Positions 2,209 through 22,270 of a stretch of DNA of 25,717 bases are shown here, piece by piece. The position numbers and the translations under genes were made by a program. The stretch is from an uncultured Chloracidobacterium sp. Lineage in GTDB: Bacteria > Acidobacteriota > Blastocatellia > Pyrinomonadales > Pyrinomonadaceae. The notes under the pieces are model-generated. The model was not told where the DNA came from, did not search any database, and was given only the letters and a program-made list of their open reading frames with translations. Within the stretch, counting starts at the first letter, position 1; the number at the start of each line of letters is the position of its first letter. The stretch lies in the NCBI GenBank assembly GCA_964608335.1, contig CAZSOE010000001.1:1-25717 (forward strand). Reading direction: 5' to 3'.

Positions 2209-2238
2209 GTTCTTGGATCGATAATGCGAGGTCCGCTT

Positions 2239-3483: not shown

Positions 3484-5410
3484 GAAGGTTACGAGCGAAT
3501 ACGACGACGAACAGATGCGTCGCTTCACGCTTGCGGTGCTCAATGACCTACAGACGCTAGAGGCGATGCTAGACGCAGGGATGTTCGAGGAGGACGTCCG
3601 GCGGATCGGAGCGGAGCAGGAGATGTTCCTTGTCGACTCCGCGATGCGGCCGGCCCCACTGGCGATCGAGGTCATCGAACAGGCGCGCGACGGACGTCTG
3701 ACGACAGAGATCGGCCGGTTCAATCTCGAAGCGAACCTTACGCCGCGCGAACTTGCAGGTGACTGTCTTTCGCAAATGGAGACGGAACTCAACGAGATCA
3801 TCGGCGTCGTGCGAACCGCCGCCGGCGAGTTCGACGCCGACGTTGTGCTCGCGGGAATACTCCCAACCATCCAGCTATCCGACCTCACACACGAGAATCT
3901 CACGCCCAACCCGCGTTACGACGAGATCGACCGCGTTGTTACAAAGCTGCATGGCAAGGACCGCTTCATCCAGATCAAGGGCCTGGATGAGCTGCAGTTG
4001 ACGCTGCAGGACACCTATATCGAATTTTGCAATACAAGTTTTCAAATTCACCTGCAGACCGGCATTCGTGATTTCGTTAGGTACTACAACTGGGCGCAGG
4101 CATTGGCCGCCCCGGTCCTGGCTTCGGCTGTCAACTCGCCGCTGCTATTGAATCACCGCCTCTGGCACGAGACGCGGCTCGCCCTGTTCCAGCACGCGAC
4201 CGACACGCGGTCGCACACGCATAAGGAACGGAACCAAACGCCGCGCGTGAACTTTGGCGACCGGTGGGTGAATGATTCGATCATCGAAGTATTGCGCGAG
4301 GATGCGATAAGGTTCCGGATACTGTTGACACAAGCTGTCGAGGAGAATTCGCTCCGAACGTTGGCGAAGGGTGGTGTGCCCGCGTTATCGGCCTGGCGGC
4401 TGCACAACGGGACGATCTGGCGCTGGAACCGCCCGTGCTACGGCATAGTGGGCGACAAGCCGGGGCTTCGTATCGAGGCCAGATACCTACCGTCAGGCCC
4501 GTCCGTCGTGGACGAAATGGCGAACGCCGCATTCTTTCTGGGCTTGATGACGGAGATGCCTGATGAATTCGGCGACATAACAAAATACATGTCGTTCGAC
4601 GATGCGAAGAACAACTTCTTCAATGCCGCGCGGTACGGGCTGAACGGTCAGATCCGCGGACTCGACGGCAAGAGCCGTCGCGTCGGACGTCTGATCCTTG
4701 AGGAACTACTCCCGCGCGCGCGTCGGGGGCTTAAAAGCGCATCGGTCGACGAGGCCGACATCGAACGCTTACTGGCTGTCCTAGAGGCACGTGTTTCAAA
4801 TGAAACGTCCGGCGCAAAATGGATGCTCGAGTCGCTTGCCGCGATGGACAAGCGTGCCAAACCGAACGTTCGAATGCGTACATTGACGGCGGCGATGAAA
4901 GCAAATCAGATCGAAGGTAAACCGATGCACGAGTGGCCCCTCGCCGCGATACCCGAACAAAGCGAATGGATCGATAATTACAAGACCGTGGAACAGTTCA
5001 TGGCTGTCGATCTCTTTACCGTTAGACCCGAGGACATCCTCGACCTCGCGGCCAGTCTGATGCATTGGCGGCACGTGCGACACGTACCGGTCGAGGACGA
5101 TGCGGGCCGCTTGATCGGCATCGTTTCGCACCGCGACCTGATCGAGCTGCTCGCAAGCGGCCGTGCGGCGACCAGGACGCCTGTACTGGTCAGCGAAATA
5201 ATGAAGACCGGTCTCATCACTGTCTCACCGGAAACACCCACGCTCGACGCGCTCGAACTGATGCGCGAGAAAAACATTGGTTGTTTGCCGGTGATCAAGG
5301 ATGGCAGGCTGGTCGGGCTGGTTACGGCATACGATTTTCTCACCGTCTCGGCGAAACTCCTGGAGGAAAAACTCACCGGCCTGGCAAGGAGCCAGGCAAA
5401 GGCTGCATAG
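3473..5410 (+). CDS. Glutamate-cysteine ligase family 2 (carboxylate-amine ligase) fused to a C-terminal CBS pair, 645 aa
   Basis: IGAEQEMFLVD, TTEIGRFNLEAN, NTSFQIHLQ, SAVNSP, WRWNRPCY, RIEARYLPSG; CBS repeats VRHVPVEDDAGRLIGIVSHRD and IGCLPVIKDGRLVGLVTAYD; overlaps the upstream stop. Confidence 0.8.
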   Translation: MGDKKVTSEYDDEQMRRFTLAVLNDLQTLEAMLDAGMFEEDVRRIGAEQEMFLVDSAMRPAPLAIEVIEQARDGRLTTEIGRFNLEANLTPRELAGDCLSQMETELNEIIGVVRTAAGEFDADVVLAGILPTIQLSDLTHENLTPNPRYDEIDRVVTKLHGKDRFIQIKGLDELQLTLQDTYIEFCNTSFQIHLQTGIRDFVRYYNWAQALAAPVLASAVNSPLLLNHRLWHETRLALFQHATDTRSHTHKERNQTPRVNFGDRWVNDSIIEVLREDAIRFRILLTQAVEENSLRTLAKGGVPALSAWRLHNGTIWRWNRPCYGIVGDKPGLRIEARYLPSGPSVVDEMANAAFFLGLMTEMPDEFGDITKYMSFDDAKNNFFNAARYGLNGQIRGLDGKSRRVGRLILEELLPRARRGLKSASVDEADIERLLAVLEARVSNETSGAKWMLESLAAMDKRAKPNVRMRTLTAAMKANQIEGKPMHEWPLAAIPEQSEWIDNYKTVEQFMAVDLFTVRPEDILDLAASLMHWRHVRHVPVEDDAGRLIGIVSHRDLIELLASGRAATRTPVLVSEIMKTGLITVSPETPTLDALELMREKNIGCLPVIKDGRLVGLVTAYDFLTVSAKLLEEKLTGLARSQAKAA

Positions 5411-5423
5411 AGAGGTAAGGACA

Positions 5424-5768
5424 ATGACAAAACCCGGACGTGAACATGGATGGAAGCGATATCTCGACTTTGTTGGGAAACAGTGGTTGGGGCGGAAGAC
5501 CCGCCTCGGGATATTTGAACCGGACCGAAAAGCCATGCAGGACTACTGGATCGAGTGCGGGCTTCCGCTGGAAGGGATCGAGCTCGACGAGTCCCACGAC
5601 CGGCCAGCGGTCTACGTAAAGCTGCGCACCCTCGGCCACGAGGTCAGAGAACCGGTTCGTATCTCATTCCATCTGAGCAAGAGCGGTGATGAGGACGGCG
5701 TCGACATACTCGATGCTGCCGGCCGGATGACGGTCCTAAGGTTCGAATCGGATCAGGCCGTCGCCTAA
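5424..5768 (+). CDS. DUF5335-like small soluble protein, 114 aa
   Basis: RBS GAGGTAAGGA then ATG 5424. W..Y....GLPLEGI...HEVREPVRI...ILDAAGRMTVLRF aligns by eye with the protein at 21186-21572. Family name is from memory. Confidence 0.6.
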   Translation: MTKPGREHGWKRYLDFVGKQWLGRKTRLGIFEPDRKAMQDYWIECGLPLEGIELDESHDRPAVYVKLRTLGHEVREPVRISFHLSKSGDEDGVDILDAAGRMTVLRFESDQAVA

Positions 5769-5934: not shown

Positions 5935-5950
5935 TGGAACAGCGGTTGCT
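5935..5950 (+). promoter_or_regulatory. sigma54 -24/-12 promoter for the Crp/Fnr gene
   Basis: TGGAAC-AGCGG-TTGCT, nearly identical to the 2193 site; predicted +1 near 5961. Confidence 0.8.
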
Positions 5951-5961: not shown

Positions 5962-6759
5962 ATGATGAAAACCGCAATCCAGATCGATACGCAGGGGGTC
6001 GAGCCCGACGGCTGGCCCGCCGAGACGATGACGACGCCCGGGCGGCGAAAAGATAACGGGAGCTACTTTTGCCATCCTCCGGAAGACGATCTTCGGCAGT
6101 TTAGGGTGATGAAGCTTGTCAGGTCCATGCCAAAGGGAGCGACGCTCTTCATGCAGGGCCAGGAGACGACCGGCGTATATGTTCTCTGCGAGGGGAAAGT
6201 GAAGCTGACGGCCAGCTCCGCAGACGGTAAGACGATCATCGTCCAGATCGCCGAGCCTGGCGATGTTCTCGGCCTGAGCGCGGCAATAGATGGGGCGGAA
6301 CACGAAACCTCGGCCGTCGCGCTTGCTGACTGTCGTGTAAATTACTTTCAAACGGCTGACCTGCTTCGGTTATTGAACGGTTCCGCGGCGGCAAGCTTGA
6401 ACGCGGCAAAACTGCTGAGCCGAAATTATCAGGTGGCGCACCGGCAGATCTGCTCGCTGGGTCTGGCCGATTCGGTCTTTGATAAGATCGCCCGGCTGCT
6501 GTTGTCCTGGGCGCCGACGCAGAACGGCGCGAAGTGCGTTCACATAGACAATTTCTTTACCCACGAGGAGATCGCGGGAATGATCGGGTCATCGCGCGAG
6601 ACAGTCACGAGAACGTTAAAGACGTTTCGCGAGCGCGACCTTATCAGGGTTAGCGGCCGCGAGCTCGTGATAGAAAATGTGGCAAGGTTGCGAGCTGCGG
6701 CCGGTATTACGAACGGCGAACCGATAACCAACTCGTTCCCTTTGATCGATCGGATGTGA
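5962..6759 (+). CDS. Crp/Fnr family transcriptional regulator with CRP-type recognition helix
   Basis: cNMP-binding-fold region (LFMQGQ..GVYVLCEGKVKL...AEPGDVLGL) and HTH THEEIAGMIGSSRETVTRTL. The start is uncertain (5962, 5965 or 6028). Confidence 0.9.
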   Translation: MMKTAIQIDTQGVEPDGWPAETMTTPGRRKDNGSYFCHPPEDDLRQFRVMKLVRSMPKGATLFMQGQETTGVYVLCEGKVKLTASSADGKTIIVQIAEPGDVLGLSAAIDGAEHETSAVALADCRVNYFQTADLLRLLNGSAAASLNAAKLLSRNYQVAHRQICSLGLADSVFDKIARLLLSWAPTQNGAKCVHIDNFFTHEEIAGMIGSSRETVTRTLKTFRERDLIRVSGRELVIENVARLRAAAGITNGEPITNSFPLIDRM

Positions 6760-6798
6760 CCTTGCTCACATACGCGCAAGCGATCAGTTGATTAACCT
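6754..6798 (+). promoter_or_regulatory. Perfect CRP-type box with downstream -10 (class II-like promoter) for mtrAB
   Basis: ATGTGA-CCTTGC-TCACAT (6754-6771) overlaps the crp stop codon. TAACCT at 6793-6798 places the box centre at about -42.5. Confidence 0.8.
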
Positions 6799-6857: not shown

Positions 6858-7883
6858 ATGGCAAATACTAACAGGATCAAGATTGTATTACTGGCCCTCT
6901 TCGCGATTTGCGTGGCCGTTTGGGGCATCTCGGCGACGCGTTCGCCCGTCTATGGCGAGGCCGTGGATCTCGACATGGGCGGCTCGGCAGGGTCCGAGGC
7001 GGCTTCGGTCGATGACTACGTCGGAAGTGAAGCCTGCCAGACCTGCCACGAAGACCAGTTCAAAGGGTTTTCGGGAACGAAACACGCGAAACTCAAAGAG
7101 GTTGCGGGCTGGAAGACCAAGGCGCAAGGATGCGAGTCTTGCCACGGCCCCGGCAAGAAGCACGTCGAGGATGCAACCGTTCCGGGCTCGATCATTTCCT
7201 TCAAGACAAAGAACGCCAAGGAAACCTCTGAGACGTGCCTGGCATGTCACGCCGGAAAGGAATCGCATAACAACTTTCGTCGTGGCGAGCACTGGCGTAA
7301 CAACATCGGGTGCACTGATTGCCATTCCCCTCACGGAGCTATGCATGGTGCGTTCAAGGTCGGTTCAACGACGCTTGTCAATCGAGCATCGGATGTGAAT
7401 CCTGCCCCGGCAATGCTCAAAACCAACGAGCAGAAGCTTTGCATCGCGTGCCACAACGAAGTTAGATCCCATTTCAGCAAACCATTCCGGCACAAAGTTC
7501 TGGAAGGGACGATGAAATGCAGCGATTGTCACAACGCACACGGCGGGTTTGAATCGAAGCAAACCAAACTCGGTATCGGGGCTGACGTGGCCTGTGTAAG
7601 ATGCCACGCGGATAAACAAGGTCCGTTTGTTTTTGAACACGCTCCGCTCAAGGTCGAAGGTTGTGCAGCATGTCATACGCCGCATGGTTCGGCGAATCCA
7701 AGATTACTTAAGCGGCATCAGGTGCGCCAGCTTTGTCTGGAATGCCACAGTGGCGTCACGGCGCAGCTCTCGGACACCCCGGCCGGCGGCCCGCATAACC
7801 AGAGGACATTATTGCAACGCAACTGTACGGCCTGTCACACGATGATTCACGGCTCGAACTCGAGCAATGTGTTCTTTAGATAG
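6858..7883 (+). CDS. mtrA: Decaheme c-type cytochrome, MtrA/DmsE/PioA/MtoA family, 341 aa
   Basis: Signal peptide; 10 CXXCH (CQTCH, CESCH, CLACH, CTDCH, CIACH, CSDCH, CVRCH, CAACH, CLECH, CTACH); family hallmarks GPFVFEHAP and HGSN at the C-terminus. The symbol indicates family, not proven orthology. Confidence 0.92.
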   Translation: MANTNRIKIVLLALFAICVAVWGISATRSPVYGEAVDLDMGGSAGSEAASVDDYVGSEACQTCHEDQFKGFSGTKHAKLKEVAGWKTKAQGCESCHGPGKKHVEDATVPGSIISFKTKNAKETSETCLACHAGKESHNNFRRGEHWRNNIGCTDCHSPHGAMHGAFKVGSTTLVNRASDVNPAPAMLKTNEQKLCIACHNEVRSHFSKPFRHKVLEGTMKCSDCHNAHGGFESKQTKLGIGADVACVRCHADKQGPFVFEHAPLKVEGCAACHTPHGSANPRLLKRHQVRQLCLECHSGVTAQLSDTPAGGPHNQRTLLQRNCTACHTMIHGSNSSNVFFR

Positions 7884-7904
7884 CGATGGATAAGAGGAGG
7901 ATCT

Positions 7905-10193
7905 ATGACAACCCGAAGTTTTAGGACAATAAGAGCCACGGTCGTCACAAACAAGATTATATTCATCGTTCTCATGGTGATCGGAGGGCTCGTTCTCACC
8001 GCGCCAAACCTGTGGGCCCAAACGCCGTCCCCGACCCCTTCCGAGAGTTTAACGACCGTTGGCGACTATGAAATAACTTCCAGTATAGAACTAGGGGTCC
8101 GCGGGCTTAAGGCTACTGGCAGCGACGAAAAATTTCGGAGTGATCTTAACTATCGCCCGGGCTTTCGGGTCTTTGACTCCAGCTTCCGGATGGAAACCAA
8201 ACGCGGAAAAGGGAAGCCATTTGATTCGTTGACGGTGACGTCGTCAGGCTGGAGTGGAGACCCCTCGGGCTTTGTTCGCGTAAATGCCGAAAAGAGTGGA
8301 GGATACACGCTTAATGCCAACCTTCGCCGTGTCAATCTGATCAATCGAGTCAATAATTTGATCCTTGCTCTTCATCCCTCGAATACAAGGCGTTACTTTG
8401 GTGATGTTGATTTGACGGTCTTTCCCGAAAGCCAAAACCTGCGGCTCCGTTTCGGAACATCGTTTTACAACGCTCGTGGAGCTCGAGGAGCTTCTTATCG
8501 AACGAGGGATGTCTTCCCTATTACGGAGAGGCTTCGGTCCGACACGATCGACCTACGCGGCGGGATCGATACCAAACTGGCGGGCTTTAATCTTTCACTT
8601 ACGGCGGGCGTAAGAGACTTTAATGACAGAGGAAGATTTGTGGTTGAAACGCGACAAGTGGGCGTTGCCGGAAGTTGTTTCTTCGGAGTCTGCATCTCGC
8701 CAACTGATATCAATTTCCTCAATCGGCTCGAAAGGCAAAACCCGACGGACGGAAAGACCAAGTACGGGATGTTCAGCATGCAGCGAACATTTGCGAAGAG
8801 ACTCGATCTTACGGGACGTTTTATTTATTCGGATACCGATCGGGATTTTAACATTCTTGATAACGTTAACTACGATGGTCAACTCAGGTATACGAATACT
8901 GCGGGGTCAAGCGTAACGTCGCCCGCCCTTTTTGCTGATGCGGACACCTACGAGATCACTGGTAGAGCAAAACGTCCGCAATCGAGAGGAGATGTGGGTT
9001 TGACGTTTGCTGCTACCAACAAGTTTAGGATCTCCAATACCTTTACGTTCGATCAATACAATAGCTTTGGCGATACCAATTACTACAATAAGCTTATCGC
9101 GAGGTGTCAGGTTGCTTCGGGTTCAACTTGTCCGGTGGCCGGTGGTCCGTTTGTAGCCGGTCTGGCGGGTGTTTCGTTCCTTGATACCAGGACGTTGTAC
9201 TGGTACTCGTATGGCTTCAAACGCTTTACAAACACCATCGAAGGAGATTACCAATTCAATAACAAAGTCGGGATCAATCTTGGGTACCGTTTTACTCATA
9301 GAAAGATAAGGCTTGCCCATGTCAATCGGATCGTCGATGATCTGGTTAACCGTCCGGTAAGCTCTTTCGTCTCGGTTTCGGCCGATGATGAGGAAGAAGA
9401 AAACACGGCTCATATTTTGTTGTTCGGAACCAAGATCAAGCCGACGTCAAACTGGACGATCTTTGCCGATGGCGAACGTGGGGAGGCAGACAACGCCTTT
9501 ATCCGATTGGCAAACTATGACTACACGAATTTCCGGGTCAGGAGCAACTGGAATTACAAAGAATTTACCTTCAACGTCTCGGGAATCATCCGGAATAACG
9601 AAAATCCCTCGCAGCCCGTCGATCCGAACACCGGTGTTCCCTTGGCGGCCCCATTCTTCGTGGCCAACGTTCGCACCCGTACCTTCTCCTCATATGTTGA
9701 TTATGTCCCAGACCCGCGATGGACGTTGAGCACCGGCTACACTTATAATTTTCTAACCAGCAAGACCGATATCGAGTTGCCTTCCCTCGGCCGGGGATTT
9801 AGCGAATTCTATATGAAGGACAACTATTTCTTCGTGGACGTTTCCGCACATCCGGTCAACCGGGTATCGTTTTATGGGAGTTACCGGTACAACAAGGATA
9901 GCGGTCAGGGGGATCGAGTTTCACCCACTCTGCTGCAGATCATCAGCTCATATCCCTTCCAGTCACATGTGCCTGAATTCCGGATAGCCATCAAGCTGAG
10001 CAAGAACATTGATTGGAATGTGGGGTACCAGTATAACGATTACAAAGAAAAACTTCAGATCGGCTACTATCTCTATAACGAACTGACCACAAATACTATC
10101 CCGCCAAATGCAGTTTATGCCCCGAACCAAAACTACAGAGCTCATCTGCCGTATACTTCTTTGAGAATATATTTCGGCGGCCGGGAACGGTAA
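7905..10193 (+). CDS. mtrB: Outer-membrane beta-barrel porin, MtrB/PioB-like, 762 aa
   Basis: Directly follows the decaheme gene (RBS GAGGAGG); signal peptide; alternating amphipathic strands rich in Y/F/G/N; ends LRIYF plus a short tail. Assignment rests on size, fold pattern and synteny. Confidence 0.75.
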   Translation: MTTRSFRTIRATVVTNKIIFIVLMVIGGLVLTAPNLWAQTPSPTPSESLTTVGDYEITSSIELGVRGLKATGSDEKFRSDLNYRPGFRVFDSSFRMETKRGKGKPFDSLTVTSSGWSGDPSGFVRVNAEKSGGYTLNANLRRVNLINRVNNLILALHPSNTRRYFGDVDLTVFPESQNLRLRFGTSFYNARGARGASYRTRDVFPITERLRSDTIDLRGGIDTKLAGFNLSLTAGVRDFNDRGRFVVETRQVGVAGSCFFGVCISPTDINFLNRLERQNPTDGKTKYGMFSMQRTFAKRLDLTGRFIYSDTDRDFNILDNVNYDGQLRYTNTAGSSVTSPALFADADTYEITGRAKRPQSRGDVGLTFAATNKFRISNTFTFDQYNSFGDTNYYNKLIARCQVASGSTCPVAGGPFVAGLAGVSFLDTRTLYWYSYGFKRFTNTIEGDYQFNNKVGINLGYRFTHRKIRLAHVNRIVDDLVNRPVSSFVSVSADDEEEENTAHILLFGTKIKPTSNWTIFADGERGEADNAFIRLANYDYTNFRVRSNWNYKEFTFNVSGIIRNNENPSQPVDPNTGVPLAAPFFVANVRTRTFSSYVDYVPDPRWTLSTGYTYNFLTSKTDIELPSLGRGFSEFYMKDNYFFVDVSAHPVNRVSFYGSYRYNKDSGQGDRVSPTLLQIISSYPFQSHVPEFRIAIKLSKNIDWNVGYQYNDYKEKLQIGYYLYNELTTNTIPPNAVYAPNQNYRAHLPYTSLRIYFGGRER

Positions 10194-10206
10194 AGTTCGT
10201 TGAGAC

Positions 10207-10247
10207 AAAAAAGGCGTATCTGGAAGCAGATACGCCTTTTGCTTTTT
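10207..10247 (+). terminator. Intrinsic (possibly bidirectional) terminator between the porin and Rieske genes
   Basis: AAAAGGCGTATCTG-GAAG-CAGATACGCCTTTT perfect stem, then GCTTTTT. Confidence 0.75.
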
Positions 10248-10401
10248 GAAAGCAACTCTTCCCGGGAAAGTTCGGCGGCGGCCGAAAAGATGTTGGCTTC
10301 CGGCCAGGCCCAGGCTTGTAACTCAATAGGTGGACCTGCGTCGCGGAAAGTAGTTGTTCTGGAACGCTGTTTAGTGTCTTGCTCAAAGAGGAGAGTCGGT
10401 T

Positions 10402-10860
10402 GTGCCTGAGGAATTCGAAGTCAAACCAGAAGAAAAAATCGGTAGGCGAAGATTATTAGATTATCTATTAGGAACAAGCACTTTCGCCACACTGGTTGCT
10501 ATCTTTTATCCGGTGCTCAAATTCATGATCCCGCCGGAAGTTGTCGAGGCGCAGCAGAACTCGGTCGTCGCCGGGAAAAACGCTGACTTCCCTCCTAATA
10601 GCGGAAAGATCTTCAAGTTCGGCAGCAAGCCAGGCCTGATGATCCGAACGGAATCGGGCGAGTTGAAGGCATTCTCGGCTAGCTGCACCCATCTTGACTG
10701 CATCGTTCAATACGACCCAGCGTCGAAATCGATCATTTGTGCCTGCCATAACGGCAAGTACGATCTTGCGGGCAAGAACATCGCCGGTCCGCCGCCCCGG
10801 CCCTTGGATGAATTCATCGTAAATGTGAAAGGAGATGAGATCACCGTAACGAAGGCGTGA
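10402..10860 (+). CDS. qcrA: Rieske [2Fe-2S] subunit of a Rieske/cytochrome b complex, 152 aa
   Basis: Tat-like anchor [10 protein letters not shown] plus a TM helix; boxes CTHLDC and CACHNGKY with the disulfide Cys pair retained; C-terminal GPPPRPL. Confidence 0.92.
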
Positions 10861-10867
10861 TCAGTTT

Positions 10868-11935
10868 GTGATAAAAGCGGACGCAGTGTTTTCGTGGCTA
10901 GATGAGCGGCTCGGCCTCAGCTCGCTGTTTGCGTTTGCGCAAAAAAAAGAAGTCCCGATGCATCGTCATTCCGTCTGGTACTACTTTGGCGGAATGACGC
11001 TGTTCCTGTTTACGGTGCAGGTTGTCACCGGCATTCTCCTACTGCTGTATTACCGGCCTAGCGCGGAGAACGCGTTCGAGAGTGTTCAATTTATCATTAC
11101 CGAGGTTCAGTTCGGGTGGCTGATACGCTCGGTACACAGTTGGTCGGCAAATCTGCTGATACTTGCGCTGTTCATCCACATGTTCAGCGTCTATTTCATG
11201 AGCGCATATCGCTCGCCCCGCGAGATAACGTGGGTGACTGGCGTCCTGCTGCTTTTCATCAGCATCGGTTTTGGTTTCAGCGGCTATCTTCTGCCGTGGA
11301 ACAAGCTGGCGTTTTTTGCGACAAAGGTCGGAACCGACATCGCCGGCGTCGTTCCGCTCGTGGGTCATGGATTGATGCGCTTCCTGCGAGGCGGGGATGA
11401 CGTCACCGGAGCAACCTTGACACGATTCTTCGGGTTTCACGTTGCCGTGCTGCCGGCGATCTCTACCGTGCTCATTGCCATGCATGTCTTGCTTGTCCAA
11501 AAGCACGGCATGAGCGTCCCGCCGGGCGTCGAAAACGACGAATCTAAGAAGATGAAGTTCGTCCCGAACTTTCTGCTCCGCGACCTGATCGGCTGGATAC
11601 TCGCCGTCGGTGTTCTAGCCGCGCTCGCTGCGATCTTTCCGTGGGAGCTTGGCGAAAAGGCCGACGCGTTCGCACCCGCACCGGAAGGCATAAAGCCCGA
11701 GTGGTACTTTCTCTTTATGTTTCAGACGCTGAAGTATCTGCCCGCGAAGATACTGTTTATCGACGGGGAAGTGCTCGGCATACTTGCGTTCGCCGGCGGC
11801 GGATTGTTTTGGGCTATCGTACCGTTCATAAACAGAACGCCCGGTCACGGAACGCGAAAGCTGGTTTTTAATATCATCGGCATCTTCATTGTCGCGTTCA
11901 TCGCGGTGATGACGATCGTCGGTTATCTGAGTTAG
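10868..11935 (+). CDS. qcrB: Cytochrome b of a Rieske/cyt b complex (b6-like and subunit IV-like parts in one chain), 355 aa
   Basis: Four heme b His (SVHSW...FIHM; GFHV...AMHV), GYLLPW, and Qo motif IKPEWYF. Confidence 0.93.
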
Positions 11936-11948
11936 ATGAGACAGTCAA

Positions 11949-13259
11949 ATGATCGGCCATAAAAACCAAAGACCAAATCCCCTGCGTCAAGTGGCGGTGT
12001 GGTCTCTGTTGCTGTGCGTTGCGCTCACGGCAGCCCTGTTGAGGTGTGTCGTCCAGACCTCGGCGCAAAGCAATAACTCATGTATCGCGTGTCACTCGAC
12101 TCTGGATGGGCCGCTCGGTGAGCCGGCTAAGTTGTTCGAGCATGACATTCATCGCGCACGAGGCCTCGCATGCAACGACTGTCACGGCGGAAACCCCAAC
12201 CGTGCCGATAAGGAAGGCGCGAAAGATCTAGGCTGGGGGTACGTCGCCAAGCCGACCGCCCAGCAAATACCTGCCTTCTGCGGGAAATGCCACAGCGATG
12301 CCGCATTCATGAAGAAGTACAACCCGGGCTTACGCGTCGATCAGGTGCAGGAATACTTCACAAGCGTTCACGGCAACAGGCTTAAGACCGGGGATAAGAA
12401 CGTGGCGACCTGCGTAAGCTGTCACGGTGTCCACGGTATACGAGCGCCGAACGATCCGTTGTCATCCGTCTATGGCGCGAACGTTGCCGAAACTTGTTCA
12501 AAGTGTCATAGCGATGCGGCAAAGATGGGCCAATATGGCATTGCGCACGACCAATATGAGAAGTACAAGACGAGCGTCCATGCTCGAGCACTCTATGAAA
12601 AGCGCGATCTCTCGGCGCCGAGCTGCAACGATTGTCATGGAAATCACGGAGCCGTGCCTCCCGGGATCGATACGGTGGCGAACGTTTGCGGTCAGTGTCA
12701 CGGCAGGCAAGCCGAGCTGTTCCAAAAGAGTCCGCATAAGGAACCGTTTCTAAAACTTCAAAAAGGGGAGTGTCTGAAATGTCACAGCAACCACGATATC
12801 CAGCCGCCAACCGACGCAATGGCTGGCGTCGGACCAGGCTCGGCCTGCACTTCATGCCATAGCAATGACGCCGGATCGGCCGCTGCGGAAAAGATCGGGA
12901 CCGGATTGACCGGCCTGAGCTCAAAGATCGATGCGGCCAAAGAGATCCTTCATCTGGCGGAAAAGGCGGGCATGGAAGTCAGCCGTCCGAAATTCGAGCT
13001 GGGCGAGGCGACCGACGGCCTCACTCAGGCTCGAGTGCTTATCCATTCCGCGTCCGCAGATGAGGTCACGGCGGCGATCGCACCGGCAATGGAGATCGCC
13101 GACAAAGGTGTAAAGGCCGGGGAGAACGCATTTGCTGAGCTCGCCTACAGGCGAAAGGGGCTCGGTGTGTCGCTCGTTTTCATTCTATTCCTGGCGCTAT
13201 TGGTTTATTTGAAGATCCGTCAGATCGAAGCTCAGCCGACGCCCGATCCTAGTACTTAA
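11949..13259 (+). CDS. Nonaheme c-type cytochrome with C-terminal membrane anchor (third subunit of the Rieske/cyt b complex), 436 aa
   Basis: Signal peptide; 9 CXXCH (CIACH, CNDCH, CGKCH, CVSCH, CSKCH, CNDCH, CGQCH, CLKCH, CTSCH); helical stalk then TM LGVSLVFILFLALLVYL. Confidence 0.88.
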   Translation: MIGHKNQRPNPLRQVAVWSLLLCVALTAALLRCVVQTSAQSNNSCIACHSTLDGPLGEPAKLFEHDIHRARGLACNDCHGGNPNRADKEGAKDLGWGYVAKPTAQQIPAFCGKCHSDAAFMKKYNPGLRVDQVQEYFTSVHGNRLKTGDKNVATCVSCHGVHGIRAPNDPLSSVYGANVAETCSKCHSDAAKMGQYGIAHDQYEKYKTSVHARALYEKRDLSAPSCNDCHGNHGAVPPGIDTVANVCGQCHGRQAELFQKSPHKEPFLKLQKGECLKCHSNHDIQPPTDAMAGVGPGSACTSCHSNDAGSAAAEKIGTGLTGLSSKIDAAKEILHLAEKAGMEVSRPKFELGEATDGLTQARVLIHSASADEVTAAIAPAMEIADKGVKAGENAFAELAYRRKGLGVSLVFILFLALLVYLKIRQIEAQPTPDPST

Positions 13260-14880
13260 CTTTTTCGTAGCTTCCCGAATGACAATCCGCACACTGGAAT
13301 CTTGAGATATCTCCAAGATTCAATGGGTGCTTGAACGAGCGGTCGCCCTTGTGACAAGCGGCGCATTGCCAGGTGTTTCGGTCGCCCAGATTCAGCGGGT
13401 GCTGAAACTTGCCATCATTTATCGCGATCGCCTGACCCTTGTAAGTTTGCTCGATCGTTACATGGCAAATGTTGCACTCATTCCGGATCACCTTGCCGTC
13501 CGGGCTGAAATGCTGACCGTCGTGACACCGGAAACAACCCTGCGAATTGAAATGCCCGATGTTCGAGGCATGAGACGACCAATCGGTCTTCATCTCAGGG
13601 AAGAAGTACGTCTGGTAGAGGCGTTTGACCTCGGCGATCGCTGCGTCCACTACGGCGCGCTTGGTCGAATAGATATCCGGGTGACTCGTTTGATAATACC
13701 GCCCAAGATCGTTCTCGATCGACGCAAGAGCCTCCTCGGTCGTCGCATATGGGCGAGTCAGCGTCTCGACCGCCTGGGCCTTGATGAAGGGTAGCTCGAT
13801 AGGTAATTTGCCTGCGTCGAGCGATCTGTCGACCGAGTCGTTAGGCGAAAGATAGATGTGCGCCGGGCGGCTGTGACAGTCGATGCAGTCCATTGTCCGT
13901 TTTGGCATGTCGCGGACTTGGTTTGCGGTGAGACTCGAGTTTCTTGCCGAGTATTCGACGACGCGGCCATTTGCGTCCTTCATCCGGACCCACGGGATGA
14001 CCTGCCGCTTCTCGTCCGTCGAGATGAACGTGACTTCATTGGCGACATTCATATGCCAGTGAATGCCGCCGACCTGCCCGGCGTTCGGATTTCCGCCCCC
14101 GACCTTTACCAGCATCCGCGTACGGTTCAAGGTATTCTGCTCGTCATACGCGTAGTGGTTGAAGACCTTCAGCTTCTCGCCGTGGTATTTTTCGGACCAG
14201 TGACACTTTTGGCACGTCTCGGTCGCCGAGCGCATGTTGTGGACCGGCGTATTGATCGGTTTATTGTAATGTCCGGAAACAACGCCGTAGAGTTGTCGAA
14301 TACCAGTGAACTTTGATCGTACATACGCCTCGGGCCCGCCGCCGACATGACATTCGACGCAGCGGATGCTCGCGTGAGGCGACGCATTATAGGCGACATA
14401 TTCCGGTTTCATCACCGAGTGACACGCGAGACCGCAGAAAGCCACGGATTCCGTATATTCGTAGGCCCGATAACTGCCGAACGCACTCATGAACAGAAAA
14501 GCAAAAGCTACGCACAGCTTTACGACGAACGATCGTCGGGCACGCGGATCGTTCAGGTCGAGCACCGGATATGCAGCGATCTCAGCCTGTGAGAGCTTAC
14601 GCCTTCGTCGACGCTCGAGAAGTGCACCGAAAAATGCGACGGCGAGGCCGAAGATCAGAACGGAAGGAACGAGGATGAACGTGATCAAATCGCTGTAGGG
14701 ATTTGTGCTGGGATCGAGGATCTCAATGAGAAACAGAAGGGCAAAACTCGTCAGACCGGCCGCGGCGATTGCAAGACCGATGAAACTTACGTAATTCCTA
14801 AATAAACTAGGAACGCGCGGACCGCCAGCGTCTCCCGCGTGGTCCTCGCGCATTTTGGGTTCTTTTTCCTTGTCGCTCAT
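13249..14880 (-). CDS. imcH: ImcH-like inner-membrane NapC/NirT-domain multiheme cytochrome, 543 aa
   Basis: Three N-terminal TM helices, NapC-like YTESVAFCGLACH (CX3CH), then 7 CXXCH. Start set at ATG 14880 (SD AGGAGA). The architecture matches Geobacter ImcH as I recall it; not aligned. Confidence 0.72.
   Translation of the reverse strand: MSDKEKEPKMREDHAGDAGGPRVPSLFRNYVSFIGLAIAAAGLTSFALLFLIEILDPSTNPYSDLITFILVPSVLIFGLAVAFFGALLERRRRRKLSQAEIAAYPVLDLNDPRARRSFVVKLCVAFAFLFMSAFGSYRAYEYTESVAFCGLACHSVMKPEYVAYNASPHASIRCVECHVGGGPEAYVRSKFTGIRQLYGVVSGHYNKPINTPVHNMRSATETCQKCHWSEKYHGEKLKVFNHYAYDEQNTLNRTRMLVKVGGGNPNAGQVGGIHWHMNVANEVTFISTDEKRQVIPWVRMKDANGRVVEYSARNSSLTANQVRDMPKRTMDCIDCHSRPAHIYLSPNDSVDRSLDAGKLPIELPFIKAQAVETLTRPYATTEEALASIENDLGRYYQTSHPDIYSTKRAVVDAAIAEVKRLYQTYFFPEMKTDWSSHASNIGHFNSQGCFRCHDGQHFSPDGKVIRNECNICHVTIEQTYKGQAIAINDGKFQHPLNLGDRNTWQCAACHKGDRSFKHPLNLGDISRFQCADCHSGSYEKVKY
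13273..13407 (-). repeat. Tandem 24-aa (72-nt) heme-motif duplication at the C-terminus of the ImcH-like protein
   Basis: FQHPLNLGDRNTWQCAACHKG / FKHPLNLGDISRFQCADCHSG. Confidence 0.9.
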
Positions 14881-15017: not shown

Positions 15018-15356
15018 TTAGTCGGCCTTTTTTAGTCCCCGCATGTACTCGGCCAGGGCTTTTGCCTCGGCTTCGGTCATGCCCTTTGCCTCAAAGCCCG
15101 GCATGTACGGAGGTTTTTCTCCCTTCCGGCCTTTGAGGATCGCTTGAACGTGAACGTCTTCCGACTTCGTCGCATCGTAAAACTTCGAAGCATTCGGTAA
15201 ATGGCAAGCCGCGCATTTCGCCTTGTAAGCCGCGGCCGGATCGTCAACAGCGCTTGGGACAAGGTCCCGGGCACGAGCTGTCTTGAACACAAAAAGCGAC
15301 ACGATCGCCGCCGCGAACATCATGATTGCGATAACTTTTATTCGATTGATCCTCAT
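15018..15356 (-). CDS. Monoheme class I cytochrome c, periplasmic, 112 aa
   Basis: Signal peptide ending TARA; single CAACH; distal Met in PYMPGF. Start at ATG 15356 with SD GAGGAAGA, not 15458. Confidence 0.88.
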   Translation of the reverse strand: MRINRIKVIAIMMFAAAIVSLFVFKTARARDLVPSAVDDPAAAYKAKCAACHLPNASKFYDATKSEDVHVQAILKGRKGEKPPYMPGFEAKGMTEAEAKALAEYMRGLKKAD

Positions 15357-15398
15357 CGTTTCTTCCTCGAATTCGGGGTGTTCCCAGCAGTTATCACG

Positions 15399-15414
15399 TG
15401 CAAAGAGCATGCCC
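15399..15414 (-). promoter_or_regulatory. sigma54 -24/-12 promoter for the monoheme cyt c / imcH-like genes
   Basis: Minus strand GGGCAT-GCTCT-TTGCA, exact spacing, 42 nt before the ATG. Confidence 0.72.
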
Positions 15415-15510
15415 GTCGTCGCGGAAGATCGGCACTCCCATAACTCCAAATAGAACAACGAGTTACGATAGCAACGATCCGGCGTTACCGGGTCGCAGAA
15501 CTTAGTTCAC

Positions 15511-15526
15511 CGCGTAAAATTCCACA
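15511..15526. promoter_or_regulatory. Putative upstream activator site
   Basis: CGCGT-AAAATT-CCACA, about 100 bp upstream of the 15399-15414 sigma54 site. Confidence 0.5.
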
Positions 15527-15540
15527 CCTTGCGCGGGACG

Positions 15541-16422
15541 CTAAAACCTAAAACGATCGCCTTGGTGGCACCGCTTACAATTCGCAAAATCGTCGGGTCC
15601 GAACGCACGCTTTCCGTTGTGGCAACCTCCGCAGCTGAGCGAGTTCGCGGGAGCGAAGTGCATTGACGCCAGGGGCGACGAGACCTGCCGTCCGCGAGCC
15701 GAACCCGCGCGGACCGTATGACAGGTCGCACAACTCATTCCCTCCGAAATATGTCTCGCATGGCTGAATCGGAGCTGAAACGCCCTCGTCCATTCTGGGG
15801 TTCGCACCAGCCGTCCGGGCTGATGACACGTGCTGCACGATGCCATCCCGGTCGATGCGTTTGCCGAATGGCACCGGAAGCAGGTGGCGTGGGCCGATGA
15901 GCCCGACGGGATCGACCGTGCGACTCCATTCCTTTGCGACGCGTGGCATGTAGCACAGCCTGTGCGCTGGTGCTTCGCATGATTGAACCTGGCTGCGAAA
16001 CTTCGCAACGGAGGAAACCGTTTCATTGCACCTGTCTCTGGATTAGTGTGACAGATCGTGCAGATCGGGCTCGACCGATCATTGAACTGAGCGGTATGAC
16101 AACCTGCACATGGCAGGTGGTTCACCTTGCCCGGAAAACCCATTCGAGGACTGTTCGTGTCCCGTCGGTGACAGATCAGGCAAGGTAAGCGCGAGTGAAA
16201 TTGGTTGCTGTGCGTAAACCGTGCAAAATCGGCCGCAGCATTTCCAGCAGGCTCGACTGATCCGTTTTCCGTCCAAGGCCCGATCTCAAAACCATGGGCC
16301 CGCCCCGACGAGGAAACATAGACAAACAGCAAGCCGCACGCGATTATGATCAGAACCTGAGTCAGCCGGCGAATAGTGATCGCTCTGGGTACTGCCTGCA
16401 AGTTATTGATATCGTGTGACAT
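15541..16422 (-). CDS. Nonaheme cytochrome made of three c7-type triheme modules, 293 aa
   Basis: Signal peptide; 9 CXXCH in three repeats of FxH-x2/4-H..CXXCH..H..CXXCH..CXXCH. Confidence 0.85.
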   Translation of the reverse strand: MSHDINNLQAVPRAITIRRLTQVLIIIACGLLFVYVSSSGRAHGFEIGPWTENGSVEPAGNAAADFARFTHSNQFHSRLPCLICHRRDTNSPRMGFPGKVNHLPCAGCHTAQFNDRSSPICTICHTNPETGAMKRFPPLRSFAARFNHAKHQRTGCATCHASQRNGVARSIPSGSSAHATCFRCHSANASTGMASCSTCHQPGRLVRTPEWTRAFQLRFSHARHISEGMSCATCHTVRAGSARGRQVSSPLASMHFAPANSLSCGGCHNGKRAFGPDDFANCKRCHQGDRFRF

Positions 16423-16432
16423 AACCAGGCGA

Positions 16433-17578
16433 TCACTTTCCCGCCGCCGCGGCGACCGCGTCCGTGTGGGACTTCGGCACCGGCATCCTCCCCAATACCA
16501 GATGGCACTTTACGCACGTGAATCTAGCGTCGCTCTTGCGTTTGTCGATCTCGAAATTGAGAGCGCCGCCGTCATCGGACGTCGGCGTCGCGTGACATGT
16601 CGCGCAGGCCGTCACGGGCACGCGCTTTGTCGCGGCATCGAGCGTATTCATTGCGGTCACGTTGTGGCAAGTCGCGCACGCCAACTCTTCGTGCGCAAAG
16701 AACTCGTGCCGAAAGGTCCCGGATGAATCGCGTTTTGCCCATGCATCTCGCATGGGTTTCTGCTGTATGCCTATGACAGCGGCGAGTTTCAGGTCAAGGT
16801 CGGCCGCAGGCTCCATCGGCCGCAGTTTGTGGCACGTACTGCATGTCTGCGGCTCTGGCTGGATACCGGTATCGGCAGAATGACACGTGAAGCACGTTGT
16901 GTGTCCCAGCGGCGTACTCTTGAACGTACCTTTCTTCAGCCAGAATTTGTCGCCCAGGTCCGCGGGAGGTTTCGTTAGATATTCATCGTCCGATTTCCCC
17001 TGGGGGGCGACCGTCTGATGACACACGGCACAGCTTGCCTCGGGTTGATCGACGTACGATGCTCGAATGAACGCCGCGCCCGAGCGCTTGTGTGCCGAAA
17101 CTATCTCGATATGCTTGTCGTGCGGGAACTGAATGGCAAAGTCCGATCGGTGCGGTTTCCCTTTTGGTGAGTTATCAAAGATCTCGCGCGGATTTGGAAA
17201 GGGGTGCCGGGACGAATTCCGAGGCGATGGGTTTGTGTGACAGATCGAGCAGATCGCGGGCGGAGATCCGCGAAAGAACTGTTGGGTGTGACACTTCAGA
17301 CATGATTCGTGGCGTGGATATTCGGTGACATCAGGAAAAGCCGCATCTCCGGTACGCACCTTGTTCCAGTTCGAGGACGGAAACTTATGACAGGAGCTGC
17401 ACTCGATTCCGTGGGCTTTTGTAGCGTGCGGGAATTCGCTGTATTTTGGTTTTTTCGGCGTCGGTTGCGGCGCGGGGTTGGCGGCGAGCGGTCTATCGGA
17501 TACAAAAAGCGCCGCACCGGCGGCAAAAAGGGCCAGGACGGTGAGTTGTAAGACCGTTCCCGAGCTTCGCGAAGTCAT
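16433..17578 (-). CDS. Nonaheme cytochrome made of three c7-type triheme modules with insertions, 381 aa
   Basis: Signal peptide, Pro-rich linker, 9 CXXCH (CSSCH, CLKCH, CSICH, CAVCH, CFTCH, CSTCH, CATCH, CATCH, CVKCH), same FxH..H repeat pattern. Confidence 0.85.
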   Translation of the reverse strand: MTSRSSGTVLQLTVLALFAAGAALFVSDRPLAANPAPQPTPKKPKYSEFPHATKAHGIECSSCHKFPSSNWNKVRTGDAAFPDVTEYPRHESCLKCHTQQFFRGSPPAICSICHTNPSPRNSSRHPFPNPREIFDNSPKGKPHRSDFAIQFPHDKHIEIVSAHKRSGAAFIRASYVDQPEASCAVCHQTVAPQGKSDDEYLTKPPADLGDKFWLKKGTFKSTPLGHTTCFTCHSADTGIQPEPQTCSTCHKLRPMEPAADLDLKLAAVIGIQQKPMRDAWAKRDSSGTFRHEFFAHEELACATCHNVTAMNTLDAATKRVPVTACATCHATPTSDDGGALNFEIDKRKSDARFTCVKCHLVLGRMPVPKSHTDAVAAAAGK

Positions 17579-17599: not shown

Positions 17600-17642
17600 A
17601 TTTTAAGCCAACTGCTCACTGCTAAATGTGATAGAAGTCACA
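17600..17642 (-). promoter_or_regulatory. Class II CRP-type promoter for the nonaheme pair
   Basis: AAATGTGA-TAGAAG-TCACA (core 17627-17642) and minus-strand -10 TAAAAT (17605-17600); the box centre falls at -41.5. Confidence 0.85.
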
Positions 17643-17714: not shown

Positions 17715-19115
17715 ATGTCATCCGCAACGGGAAAGGTCCTGATCATTGATGATGACCGCTTTGTGCGCATGGCGCTCGGCGAGGCGCTGAGATCTTGGGA
17801 GTACGATGTAATCGAAGCGGACACCGTGAGATCGGGCGAGCAGTTGTTCGCCGATGAGGAACCACCGATCGTCCTGCTCGATATCGACCTGCCCGACGGC
17901 TCGGGTCTGGATCTGCTCACGCGGATCAAAGAAAGAAACCCCGAATCGGTCGTCGTCATGATAACCGGAAATGTCGATATCGAGAATACGGTGGCGGCGC
18001 TCCGCGGCGGTGCGCACGATTTTATCGGCAAGCCGGTCAGGATCGAGGAGCTTCGGGTAACGCTCCGAAACGCAAGCGAGACGCGCGAGCTTCGGCGGGA
18101 GGTGAGCCGAGCGCGTAGCGAGAGAAAGCGCGGTTTTAGTTTTGACGAGATCATCGGCGAGTCTGCCGCGATGCAGAAAGCGATAGACCTTGCGCGCCGC
18201 GTTGCCGAATCGGATGTCTCATCGATCTTGCTGAACGGCGAGACGGGCACCGGCAAGGACCTTTTCGCGCGGGCGATACACTTCGCCTCCGATCGCGCCG
18301 ACCGGCCCTATCTTGCTATCAACTGCGCGGCCCTGCCAGCCAGTTTGATCGAATCCGAACTCTTTGGCTACGAAAAGGGCGCGTTTACCGACGCGAAATC
18401 GAGGAAAGAAGGATTGTTCGAACAGGCCCACGGCGGGACGATCTTTCTGGACGAGATCGGCGAGATGGAACTCGCTCTTCAGGCGAAACTTCTTCGCGTG
18501 CTCGAGGAGGGTGAGTTCCGACGCGTCGGCGGTCTGAAAGATATCAAGTACGACGCGCGGATCATCGCTGCTTCAAACAGGAACCTGAAACGCGAAAGCG
18601 AGGCGGGAAACTTTCGTCTCGATCTCTACTTTCGCCTTTCGGTGATCCAGGTGGACATTCCGCCGCTTCGCGAGCGCGGTGACGACGTACTTCTGCTTGC
18701 CCGGTACTACATTGAGAAAGCGAATCAGAAGCGCCCGACGCGCGTGCTCGGCGATCTTTCGCCGGAGGTTCAAAAGCTGTTCAGAACTTACGATTGGCCG
18801 GGGAACGTACGCGAGCTAAAGAATGTGATCGAGCGTGCCTCGATTCTCGAGGACGGCAAGCTCGTAACCGCAGCGCACATGCCCGCCGACATGCTTGGCG
18901 GCTCGCGAACAGTCGGGACCGGCGATTCGGCCCTATCGCTTCCGGCCGGCGGCGTATCGCTCGAGACGGTCGAGTTTGAACTCGCAAAACAGGCCTTCGA
19001 CCGCGAGGGCGGCAACCTCACGCGCGCGGCGAAACTCCTCGATATTTCACGCGACCAGCTCCGTTATAAGCTGCGGAAAGGCGGGTTCGAGCCTCATGGG
19101 ACTGAAACGAAATGA
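17715..19115 (+). CDS. sigma54-dependent response regulator (REC-AAA+-HTH; NtrC/AtoC/ZraR family), 466 aa
   Basis: IIDDD, LLDIDLP (phospho-Asp), Walker [39 protein letters not shown], Fis-type [23 protein letters not shown]. Confidence 0.95.
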
Positions 19116-21049: not shown

Positions 21050-21102
21050 TCTTCCATAAACTTTGCGCCGATCCCCACACCCGGCTCTCACGTTCAATGC
21101 AC

Positions 21103-21118
21103 TGGCACAGAATTTGAT
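21103..21118 (+). promoter_or_regulatory. Deviant sigma54-like site for the DUF5335 gene
   Basis: TGGCAC-AGAAT-TTGAT: perfect -24 element and spacing, but -12 GC is replaced by GA. Confidence 0.45.
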
Positions 21119-21185
21119 TAACCTTTATTCCGGGTATCCTTACCGACAGCCCATCGTCGCGCTTCTCCGGCGACAGGGAGGAATA

Positions 21186-22126: not shown

Positions 22127-22215
22127 GCCGGAGTGGCGAAATTGGTATACGCACCAGACTCAAAATCTGGCGGGATTCACTTCCCATGTCGGTTCGAGTC
22201 CGACCTCCGGCACCA
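22127..22215 (+). tRNA. tRNA-Leu(CAA), 89 nt
   Basis: Acceptor GCCGGAG/CTCCGGC, A discriminator, encoded CCA; anticodon arm CCAGA-CTCAAAA-TCTGG (CAA at 22161-22163); long variable arm; T-arm GTCGG-TTCGAGT-CCGAC. Confidence 0.97.
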
Positions 22216-22238
22216 CAACGAACCGATCAAAGAGGCTT

Positions 22239-22270
22239 CGGCACACTTCGTGGGTGTGCCGTTTTCTTTG
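22239..22270 (+). terminator. Intrinsic terminator after tRNA-Leu
   Basis: CGGCACAC / GTGTGCCG 8-bp stem, then TTTTCTTTG. Confidence 0.8.

Follow-up and report, generated by a model that had tools for sequence, protein, structure and literature searches.

A conserved Pyrinomonadaceae gene cluster predicted to join an MtrA-type decahaem cytochrome, an unannotated family of outer-membrane barrels and interchangeable quinol oxidases

The closest described counterparts of the gene cluster reported here are the MtrCAB system of Shewanella, the conduits MtoAB (Sideroxydans, Gallionella) and PioAB (Rhodopseudomonas), the inner-membrane quinol oxidases ImcH and CbcL of Geobacter sulfurreducens, the ext cluster of Geobacter, and the 'EET2' clusters of peat Acidobacteriota. 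The cluster lies in a stretch of 25,717 nt, referred to as the window, which is the entire contig (25.7 kb) CAZSOE010000001.1 of an uncultured Chloracidobacterium sp. of the family Pyrinomonadaceae. It comprises genes for a decahaem cytochrome (A), a predicted outer-membrane barrel (B), a Rieske/cytochrome b pair with the nine-haem cytochrome c436, an ImcH-type quinol dehydrogenase, three further c-type cytochromes (a monohaem cytochrome, c293 and c381) and a Crp-family regulator. With moderate confidence we favour the view that it serves outward extracellular respiration, in which interchangeable quinol oxidases would supply electrons to acceptors outside the cell when oxygen is short.

As in Shewanella MtrCAB, whose MtrAB core is given by PDB 6R2Q, a large barrel gene comes directly after the gene for a decahaem cytochrome of the DmsE/MtrA family, and the predicted fold of B is closest to that of MtrB. 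Unlike in Shewanella, there is no MtrC/OmcA and B stands outside the MtrB/PioB family; the quinol dehydrogenase is ImcH or Rieske/cytochrome b and not CymA, and the carriers are nine-haem cytochromes of the c3/c7 type instead of STC/FccA. The two-part conduit of decahaem and barrel without MtrC is shared with MtoAB and PioAB, as are a monohaem cytochrome c in the cluster and, in some relatives of the window, a CbcL/MtoC-like inner-membrane cytochrome. In contrast to these systems, ImcH and GSU1996-like and Hmc-like carriers are linked to the conduit, not MtoD/CymA or the PioC HiPIP, the barrel is of another family, and the hosts are heterotroph-related Acidobacteria, for which the function of the system is a prediction.

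In Geobacter, ImcH and CbcL are quinol oxidases needed for outward extracellular electron transfer (EET) at high and low potential. The window encodes a protein with the architecture and haem spacing of ImcH, and its relatives encode a CbcL-like protein; here, however, they are encoded beside an MtrA-type conduit, the ImcH has eight haem motifs and not seven, and a Rieske/cytochrome b complex occurs as a third alternative module. A survey published in 2018 had found no imcH adjacent to mtrAB or mtoAB (PMC6295460). The only characterised cluster we found that combines a porin and multihaem cytochromes with Rieske/cytochrome b is extHIJKLMNOPQS of Geobacter, with the porin-like ExtI, multihaem cytochromes, the Rieske protein ExtO and the cytochrome b ExtP, for which a role in selenite/tellurite reduction was implicated (PMC5877670). 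It differs from the window in its porin of 45 kDa and its other cytochromes, and both an MtrA-type decahaem and ImcH are missing from it. Sequence-divergent Mtr-like porin-cytochrome clusters were described for peat Bryobacterales (Acidobacteriota; 'EET2') and Verrucomicrobiota (bioRxiv 10.64898/2026.05.27.727921). 'EET2' stems from the same phylum as the window and likewise shows syntenic multihaem and porin genes, Mtr-like predicted structures and divergent sequences; unlike 'EET2', the cluster described here belongs to the class Blastocatellia (Pyrinomonadaceae), and ImcH, CbcL and Rieske have 0 occurrences in that text. In the literature we found no description of this Pyrinomonadaceae cluster or its barrel family, and none of imcH beside an MtrA-type conduit, of three-way module swapping, or of conserved CRP boxes.

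Genes were called by combining a listing of open reading frames (ORFs), counting of haem motifs and scans with Pfam and NCBIfam models. Six proteins of the cluster carry 45 CxxCH motifs and one CX3CH motif within 11 kb. The original prediction had read this region as MtrAB without MtrC beside two quinol oxidases. Its gene limits were exact from A through the ImcH-like gene, but it ended short of the three cytochromes encoded at 15018-17578, which are conserved members of the same cluster as A and B.

To compare gene neighbourhoods, related loci were gathered by exact look-ups and from 80 genome loci, and were classified by phmmer for homologues of the window proteins and by haem motifs. Presence was counted in 45 related Pyrinomonadaceae loci that extend for at least 7 kb beyond B on its downstream side. 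In these, the outer set was near-invariant: A, the monohaem cytochrome c and c293 were each present in 43 loci, Crp in 42 and c381 in 40, and the Crp gene stood immediately upstream of the decahaem gene in 42/45. The inner-membrane modules varied, with ImcH in 38 loci, a CbcL-like protein in 14, Rieske/cytochrome b in eight, and at least one of them in 44. ImcH was the only module in 25 loci and was accompanied by the CbcL-like protein in six; the CbcL-like protein occurred alone in five. Rieske/cytochrome b together with ImcH, as in the window, was seen in four loci, all three modules in three, and Rieske only and no module in one each. The CbcL-like protein is a nine-haem domain fused to a Ni_hydr_CYTB domain (e.g., L002 16110-17951), and its gene sits in the slot that is held by the Rieske operon in the window; a fusion of the CbcL/MtrH/MtoC type is absent from the window. 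Distant members of the B family (176-211 bits) follow a decahaem-type gene of about 312 aa, and their loci adjoin either Rieske, cytochrome b, multihaem and c-type cytochrome genes with an ImcH-like gene, or Crp, CbcL-like and ImcH-like genes.

These data show that the cluster is one system and not a chance neighbourhood, with constant outer parts and a variable inner module. Since relatives swap Rieske/cytochrome b for the CbcL-like protein or have neither, the two oxidases appear as interchangeable inputs to one conduit, and a fixed design of two oxidases calls for no explanation.

Gene A (6858-7883, + strand) encodes a protein of 341 aa with ten CxxCH motifs and a Sec signal and without lipobox. 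It reached 229.9 bits on the DmsE-family decahaem model TIGR03508 (cutoff 192.2), on which MtrA of Photobacterium, used as reference, scores 322 bits. To this MtrA it is 27% identical over the full length (E=3e-36), with all ten haems aligned. A match to chain A of PDB 6r2q, the Mtr complex, spans the haem chain (7.5e-31); we take this chain to be MtrA (the molecule name in the file is 'Cystathionine beta-synthase'). As judged from these alignments, A is clearly a decahaem cytochrome of the DmsE/MtrA family. It is separated from gene B by an intergenic gap of 21 bp.

Gene B (7905-10193, + strand) encodes 762 aa and has no match among Pfam or NCBIfam models. PF11854 matched 0/50 members of the B family even at E<=10, and one distant relative gave a faint match (E=0.014). 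Comparison by hhalign of B with the authentic MtrB of Photobacterium and with the canonical MtrB/PioB of a related acidobacterium resulted in probabilities of 0.56% and 0.24%. As a positive control, the mtrCAB locus of Photobacterium, taken from a plasmid collection, yielded 392, 322 and 551 bits on the MtrC, MtrA and MtrB models. No record was returned by an identical-sequence look-up of B, and nothing by a sequence search of the PDB; only the fold search was informative. An AlphaFold2 (AF2) model built from 50 homologues (pLDDT 80, pTM 0.72) has about 26-28 strands. Its best PDB fold match in Foldseek was MtrB (6r2q_B, TM 0.58 for the query and 0.67 for the target), and the next matches were TonB-dependent receptors with TM of about 0.35-0.4. 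B is thus predicted to form an MtrB-like barrel wide enough to sheath the decahaem. The label 'MtrAB' is therefore appropriate for A, which falls into the MtrA family by TIGR03508 and 6r2q_A, but for B it applies to the fold only.

A profile search with B in 1.84 billion representatives found 1441 clusters at E<=1e-3 and 277 at E<=1e-30. Roughly 170 genomes carry B. The named close relatives are all annotated as 'hypothetical protein' and stem from metagenome-assembled genomes of Pyrinomonadaceae, Blastocatellia or Acidobacteriota; for distant relatives of B, cluster look-ups yielded hardly any taxonomy. By sequence comparison, B defines a large, distinct and unannotated family that is not detectably MtrB/PioB. 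Across the related loci mapped, those of low similarity included, a decahaem gene precedes the B-family gene. Two loci carry in addition a second decahaem gene (41% identity to A) followed by a canonical MtrB/PioB barrel gene (TIGR03509, 257-272 bits) immediately upstream of the A-B pair (L048 5330-8705; L045 960-4366), so that a classical and a novel-family barrel stand in tandem, each behind its own decahaem. In two other loci the A-B pair itself is tandemly duplicated (L002 8917-15785; L079 8946-15800), and in L002 a perfect CRP box lies 82 bp upstream of each copy.

For ImcH, a definition has been published that comprises three N-terminal helices, an atypical CX3CH motif beside the last helix and 5-9 CX2CH motifs (PMC6295460; bioRxiv 10.1101/2023.05.03.539133). 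The gene at 13249-14880 (- strand), which converges on the c436 gene on the opposite strand, encodes, with the ATG at 14880 as start, a protein of 543 aa. The 554-aa ORF contains three hydrophobic stretches (41-59, 72-90 and 127-145) that correspond to transmembrane helices. In the 543-aa form, CGLACH at position 149 comes right after helix 3 and is followed by seven CXXCH motifs at 174, 223, 332, 449, 469, 506 and 530. Published motif positions were taken from Table S3 of PMC6295460: the offsets agree within 1 residue with those of the acidobacterial homologue OLE50779.1 (137, 161, 210, 319, 436, 456, 493, 517), and the first seven also match Geobacter bremensis. The core of the protein is NrfH-like (NrfH match 2.9e-5). 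In architecture and motif spacing it agrees with the published definition of ImcH, and we consider it an inner-membrane quinol dehydrogenase of this type.

Directly 3' of gene B a strong terminator-like hairpin with a 14-bp stem and a T run (10209-10240, + strand) precedes the Rieske operon. The Rieske [2Fe-2S] subunit (10402-10860, + strand) has an N-terminal membrane anchor and was recognised by family scans and by its cluster motifs CTHLDC at 95 and CACH at 113. After a gap of 7 bp the cytochrome b gene follows (10868-11935, + strand), which encodes 355 aa of the fused b6 plus subunit-IV type. Besides the family matches it has His90/104 and His191/206 in b6-type spacing as haem ligands and the Qo motif PEWY at 277, and it lacks the haem-ci cysteine; on the model of Geobacter ExtP it scored 216 bits, below the cutoff of 290. 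By these motifs, the Rieske/cytochrome b pair is an intact complex of the bc1/b6f type. In CACHNG, a Gly replaces the Ser of bc1 Rieske proteins, which would fit a lower-potential centre of the menaquinol type. Sequence motifs thus confirm both quinol oxidases of the original prediction.

The position of cytochrome c1/f in the Rieske/cytochrome b module is taken by c436 (11949-13259, + strand), a c-type cytochrome with nine haem motifs, a signal peptide and a C-terminal transmembrane anchor. In 8/8 related loci with Rieske and cytochrome b genes, its gene is present as well. No useful match came from a PDB sequence search with c436. A match to the generic pentahaem-domain model PF22113 (38 bits) raised the possibility that c436 is a hidden MtrC; this was rejected in view of the C-terminal membrane anchor, the location in the Rieske operon and the missing similarity to MtrC. 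We hold it possible, if rather doubtful, that the complex, with a nine-haem wire in place of c1/f, feeds an Mtr-type conduit directly. This would allow Q-cycle-coupled extracellular respiration of high yield at high acceptor potential or, in reverse, uptake of external electrons into menaquinone driven by proton-motive force; the modules would be swapped as a 'gearbox' for the potential of the habitat, and B would be an independently recruited sheath outside the MtrB family. In a locus of the distant B family (L084 1-4728), genes for Rieske protein, cytochrome b, multihaem c, monohaem c and an ImcH-like protein are arranged head-to-tail on one strand. This layout of an apparent single operon suggests that ImcH is not strictly an alternative to the Rieske complex and that both can be expressed together.

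The three cytochromes beyond imcH are encoded on the minus strand. The monohaem cytochrome c (15018-15356) is of class I, with CAACH, a probable Met ligand in PYMPGF and an N-terminal signal or anchor. The second, c293 (15541-16422), has nine haem motifs, and family scans point to c7-type domains; it resembles GSU1996 of Geobacter, a periplasmic dodecahaem cytochrome built as a chain of such domains (PDB 3ov0_A, 2.9e-17). A lipoprotein signal and a linker rich in Pro, Ser and Thr (e.g., LISC|SEPP, FAAC|GSSP) are present in 21/52 c293 homologues, and by these sequence features the protein is membrane-tethered in part of its family. The c293 of the window has a Sec signal or anchor and lacks the lipobox cysteine, as do its closest relatives. 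The cysteine of its signal peptide (IIIAC) was considered as a lipobox and rejected, since hydrophobic residues continue beyond it and close relatives are without it. Homologues in three loci (L043, L056, L079) are enlarged to 432-438 aa with 15 haem motifs, which suggests that they gained extra haem-binding domains, possibly of the c7 type. The third, c381 (16433-17578), is a nine-haem cytochrome that is c3/Hmc-like in family scans and has a Pro-rich linker besides its Sec signal. Among the soluble components it is the one conserved best (identity at least 59% over the best 120 relatives). Its AF2 model is of low confidence (pLDDT 44), and a PDB sequence search with it returned nothing useful.

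None of these proteins resembles MtrC. None of the six window cytochromes that were scanned matched the OmcA/MtrC model TIGR03507, a phmmer search with authentic MtrC found nothing in the six-frame translated window or in the ORFs of 84 related loci (1.36 Mb), and comparisons of c381, c436 and c293 with MtrC by hhalign and BLASTP were insignificant. With about 30-40 aa per haem, the haem density of c293 and c381 is far above that of MtrC. The earlier statement that the window lacks a protein of the OmcA/MtrC family is thus supported, the real mtrCAB locus being positive as control.

The gene upstream of A (5962-6759, + strand) encodes a transcription regulator of the Crp/Fnr family with a cNMP-binding domain and HTH_Crp_2 (Pfam, NCBIfam). 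A site search revealed a perfect CRP-type palindrome TGTGA-N6-TCACA at 6755-6770, which overlaps the stop codon of crp; it begins 103 bp before the start codon of A, and 87 bp separate box and ATG. A second perfect box (17627-17642) heads the minus-strand cytochrome and imcH genes, 48 bp from the c381 start codon. In total the window contains three perfect sites, compared to 0.46 expected even if one mismatch is allowed; the third (22887-22902) lies inside the queA coding region and is probably due to chance or unrelated. In 59/80 related loci the decahaem gene is preceded by a perfect box at a distance of up to 300 bp, in 34/39 such a box lies upstream of c381, and boxes are kept in loci whose B is in some cases only 38% identical to that of the window. 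From the placement of the boxes, A-B and the minus-strand cytochrome/imcH genes look co-regulated. The adjacent Crp-family protein is the obvious candidate and probably regulates the cluster. CRP also controls the mtr genes of Shewanella, and CRP-type control may be common to both systems.

A response regulator of the sigma-54-dependent type (encoded from 17715 to 19115) and a PAS hybrid histidine kinase are encoded divergently from c381 (together 17715-21049, + strand). They are adjacent in only 11-12/45 related loci, which indicates a loose association. Near-consensus sigma-54-type promoters (TGGAAC-N5-TTGC, one mismatch each) were seen at 2193-2208 and 5935-5950 (+ strand), about 11-15 bp upstream of the starts of an AstE-like gene and of the Crp gene. 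Sites of this type with up to two mismatches occur at chance rate overall, and the significance of the two is uncertain. A putative sigma-54 promoter before c381 (TGGCTT-N-TTGCA) was rejected due to wrong GG-GC spacing.

For the outward respiration that we favour, we infer the localisation of the proteins, the order of the carriers, the direction of flow and the identity of the acceptors as follows. Menaquinol would be oxidised at the periplasmic face of the inner membrane either by ImcH or by the complex of Rieske protein, cytochrome b and nine-haem cytochrome. The ImcH route would be electroneutral, with release of protons to the periplasm; the Rieske/cytochrome b route would run a Q-cycle and yield more proton-motive force per electron but would need an acceptor of higher potential. 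The quinol oxidases are probably tuned to the potential of the acceptor, and Rieske/cytochrome b would add its Q-cycle gain at the high-potential end. Electrons would then pass to periplasmic or membrane-tethered carriers, namely c381, the GSU1996-like c293 and the monohaem cytochrome c, and from these to the MtrA-like decahaem A, which would span the outer membrane inside barrel B. The exposed terminal haem of A could reduce soluble, chelated or colloidal acceptors directly, candidates being Fe(III)/Mn(III) complexes, humic quinones and shuttles; alternatively, an unrecognised partner may take the electrons. Both gene sets would be switched on by the Crp-family regulator through the TGTGA-N6-TCACA boxes.

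We favour the outward direction because ImcH and CbcL are outward quinol oxidases in Geobacter, because the carriers are of the c7 type, and because ext and D. acetexigens provide precedents. Homologues of ImcH had been reported only for Fe(III) reducers (PMC6295460), and ImcH was reported to oxidise menaquinol and to reduce a periplasmic c7 cytochrome in an electroneutral manner, with protons released to the periplasm (bioRxiv 10.1101/2023.05.03.539133). In the electrode reducer D. acetexigens, ImcH and CbcL have the consecutive accessions TRO80643.1 and TRO80642.1, which we read as adjacent genes (PMC12133095).

The original prediction had seen a 'direction paradox' in a conduit without MtrC next to quinol oxidases and had offered outward flow to high-potential or soluble acceptors with Q-cycle gain, uptake by reverse flow or a reversible conduit as solutions. 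The first of these is the one favoured by ImcH and the c7-type carriers, but the framing as a paradox fails, as inward flow cannot reliably be deduced from a lack of MtrC (PMC8805035, PMC5971433). Point mutations in MtrA/MtrB restore Fe(III) reduction without outer-membrane cytochromes (PMC8805035), and soluble Fe(III) citrate can come into contact with MtrAB at its outer face (PMC5971433). The framing also ignored the three further conserved cytochromes, one of which, c293, is a lipoprotein in about 40% of its relatives. MtoA and PioA form no function-specific clades, and the net direction is not inferable from genes (PMC8805035); for this reason a phylogeny of the decahaem would not settle the direction.

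Several points weigh against outward respiration. Cultured members of the family are aerobes. The class-I monohaem cytochrome c is conserved in the cluster, and such cytochromes also serve inward pathways, in analogy to MtoD. In iron oxidisers, reverse electron flow classically takes place at a Rieske/cytochrome b complex. An outer-surface cytochrome was not identified, which leaves the reduction of solid minerals unexplained. The Rieske module follows a terminator-like hairpin without a CRP box of its own, and its functional link to A-B, suggested by position, is putative; hairpin and missing box fit the view that the Rieske operon is an add-on module. Furthermore, c436 could have haems of a potential too low for electron uptake from a forward-running Rieske centre. 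Finally, direction cannot be read from Mtr-type sequences (PMC8805035), and CbcL/MtoC-type proteins are also present in Fe(II) oxidisers (PMC6295460).

A reversible conduit is an alternative that we consider unlikely. It would run outward when organic donors are plentiful and oxygen is missing, and inward in the presence of oxygen or nitrate, with Fe(II), reduced humics or minerals as electron source; Rieske/cytochrome b or the monohaem cytochrome c would then join an aerobic chain. The conserved class-I monohaem cytochrome c and the relationship of the lineage to aerobes of soils with fluctuating redox conditions are in line with this. The Mtr system runs both ways in the laboratory, its direction being considered a matter of metabolism and chemistry (PMC8805035; in part PMC3032769), and homologues of CbcL/MtrH/MtoC occur in reducers and oxidisers alike (PMC6295460). 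ImcH, however, has so far been tied only to quinol oxidation (PMC6295460; bioRxiv 10.1101/2023.05.03.539133), and no terminal oxidase, HiPIP or cupredoxin was seen in the window or in the few Pfam-annotated related loci.

It is quite unlikely, in our view, that the genes belong to a conventional three-part system whose surface partner is encoded elsewhere, be it of the MtrC/OmcA type, a reductase of the DmsAB type or an unrecognised one such as secreted c381 or c293. The contig covers only 25.7 kb, so most of the genome lies outside it, and in Desulfobacterota mtrAB genes are clustered while mtrC can be, and often is, located elsewhere in the genome (PMC12133095). That A belongs to the DmsE family and that 21/52 relatives of c293 carry a lipoprotein signal with a linker could likewise point to such a partner. 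The searches for OmcA/MtrC described above were negative, however, in the window as well as in the related loci, and no molybdopterin reductase was seen in the window or in the few fully annotated related loci. The c293 of the window lacks the lipobox cysteine, c293 and c381 differ from MtrC in haem density and sequence, and the text of a survey on MtrCAB does not mention Acidobacteria (PMC8805035).

Dedicated uptake according to the logic of MtoAB/PioAB appears very unlikely. Fe(II) or another external donor would be oxidised at the exposed haem of A, and electrons would flow downhill to an oxidase and uphill to quinones via a reversed Rieske/cytochrome b complex. An A-B pair without MtrC is indeed the layout of known oxidisers (PMC8805035; PMC10654088), homologues of PioA/MtoA were noted in Acidobacteria (PMC10654088), and the window has both the Rieske/cytochrome b complex and a monohaem cytochrome c. 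Yet the Rieske module is present in only 8/45 related loci, compared to 38/45 for ImcH, which has not been found in oxidisers (PMC6295460). The carriers are haem-dense c3/c7-type cytochromes, typical of reducers, and not HiPIP or small high-potential proteins, and the window and the few fully annotated related loci show no linked genes for carbon fixation or an oxidase. That the system is not extracellular at all, with B as an ordinary uptake porin and the cytochromes serving periplasmic respiration, is extremely improbable: B has no family annotation and TonB-dependent receptors are among its fold matches, but MtrB is the best match by a wide margin, an MtrA-type decahaem gene precedes B-family genes down to low similarity, the same upstream position is occupied in two loci by a canonical pair of decahaem and MtrB/PioB genes, and no catalytic subunit of a reductase is linked.

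Upstream of the Crp gene, at 2224-5410 (+ strand), lie genes for an AstE/AspA-like deacylase and for a protein of the GCS2 type (glutamate-cysteine-ligase family 2) that has tandem CBS domains, and this pair is retained in 20-25/45 related loci. Two DUF5335 paralogues flank the cluster. The first (5424-5768, + strand) lies between the GCS2-CBS gene and Crp, as it does in L001, the closest relative, and the second (21063-21572, + strand) just 3' of the histidine kinase gene. A tandem universal-stress-protein (Usp) gene (1119-1976, - strand) and a gene for a TauE/SafE-type membrane protein (346-1122) flank the region, and both are retained in L001. At the other side, tRNA-Leu(CAA) (22127-22215, + strand) overlaps the 5' end of the longest queA ORF (22186-23319), so the true queA start must be further downstream.

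We see a moderate interest of this locus in the annotation gap and in the comparative module swap rather than in a paradox of direction. B was missed by every family model tried, and pipelines keyed on MtrB/PioB or MtrC models would probably overlook such systems. The conduit unites a Shewanella-type decahaem, Geobacter-type quinol oxidases and an unannotated barrel family. Three types of inner module on one constant outer conduit provide a comparative system for relating the choice of quinol oxidase to acceptor potential and energy yield, a relation for which Geobacter is at present almost the only object of study. Surveys of soil and wastewater contain Pyrinomonadaceae and related Blastocatellia, which are generally treated as aerobic heterotrophs. 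If our view of the cluster is true, these bacteria could respire extracellular iron, manganese and humic acceptors, or exchange electrons with minerals.

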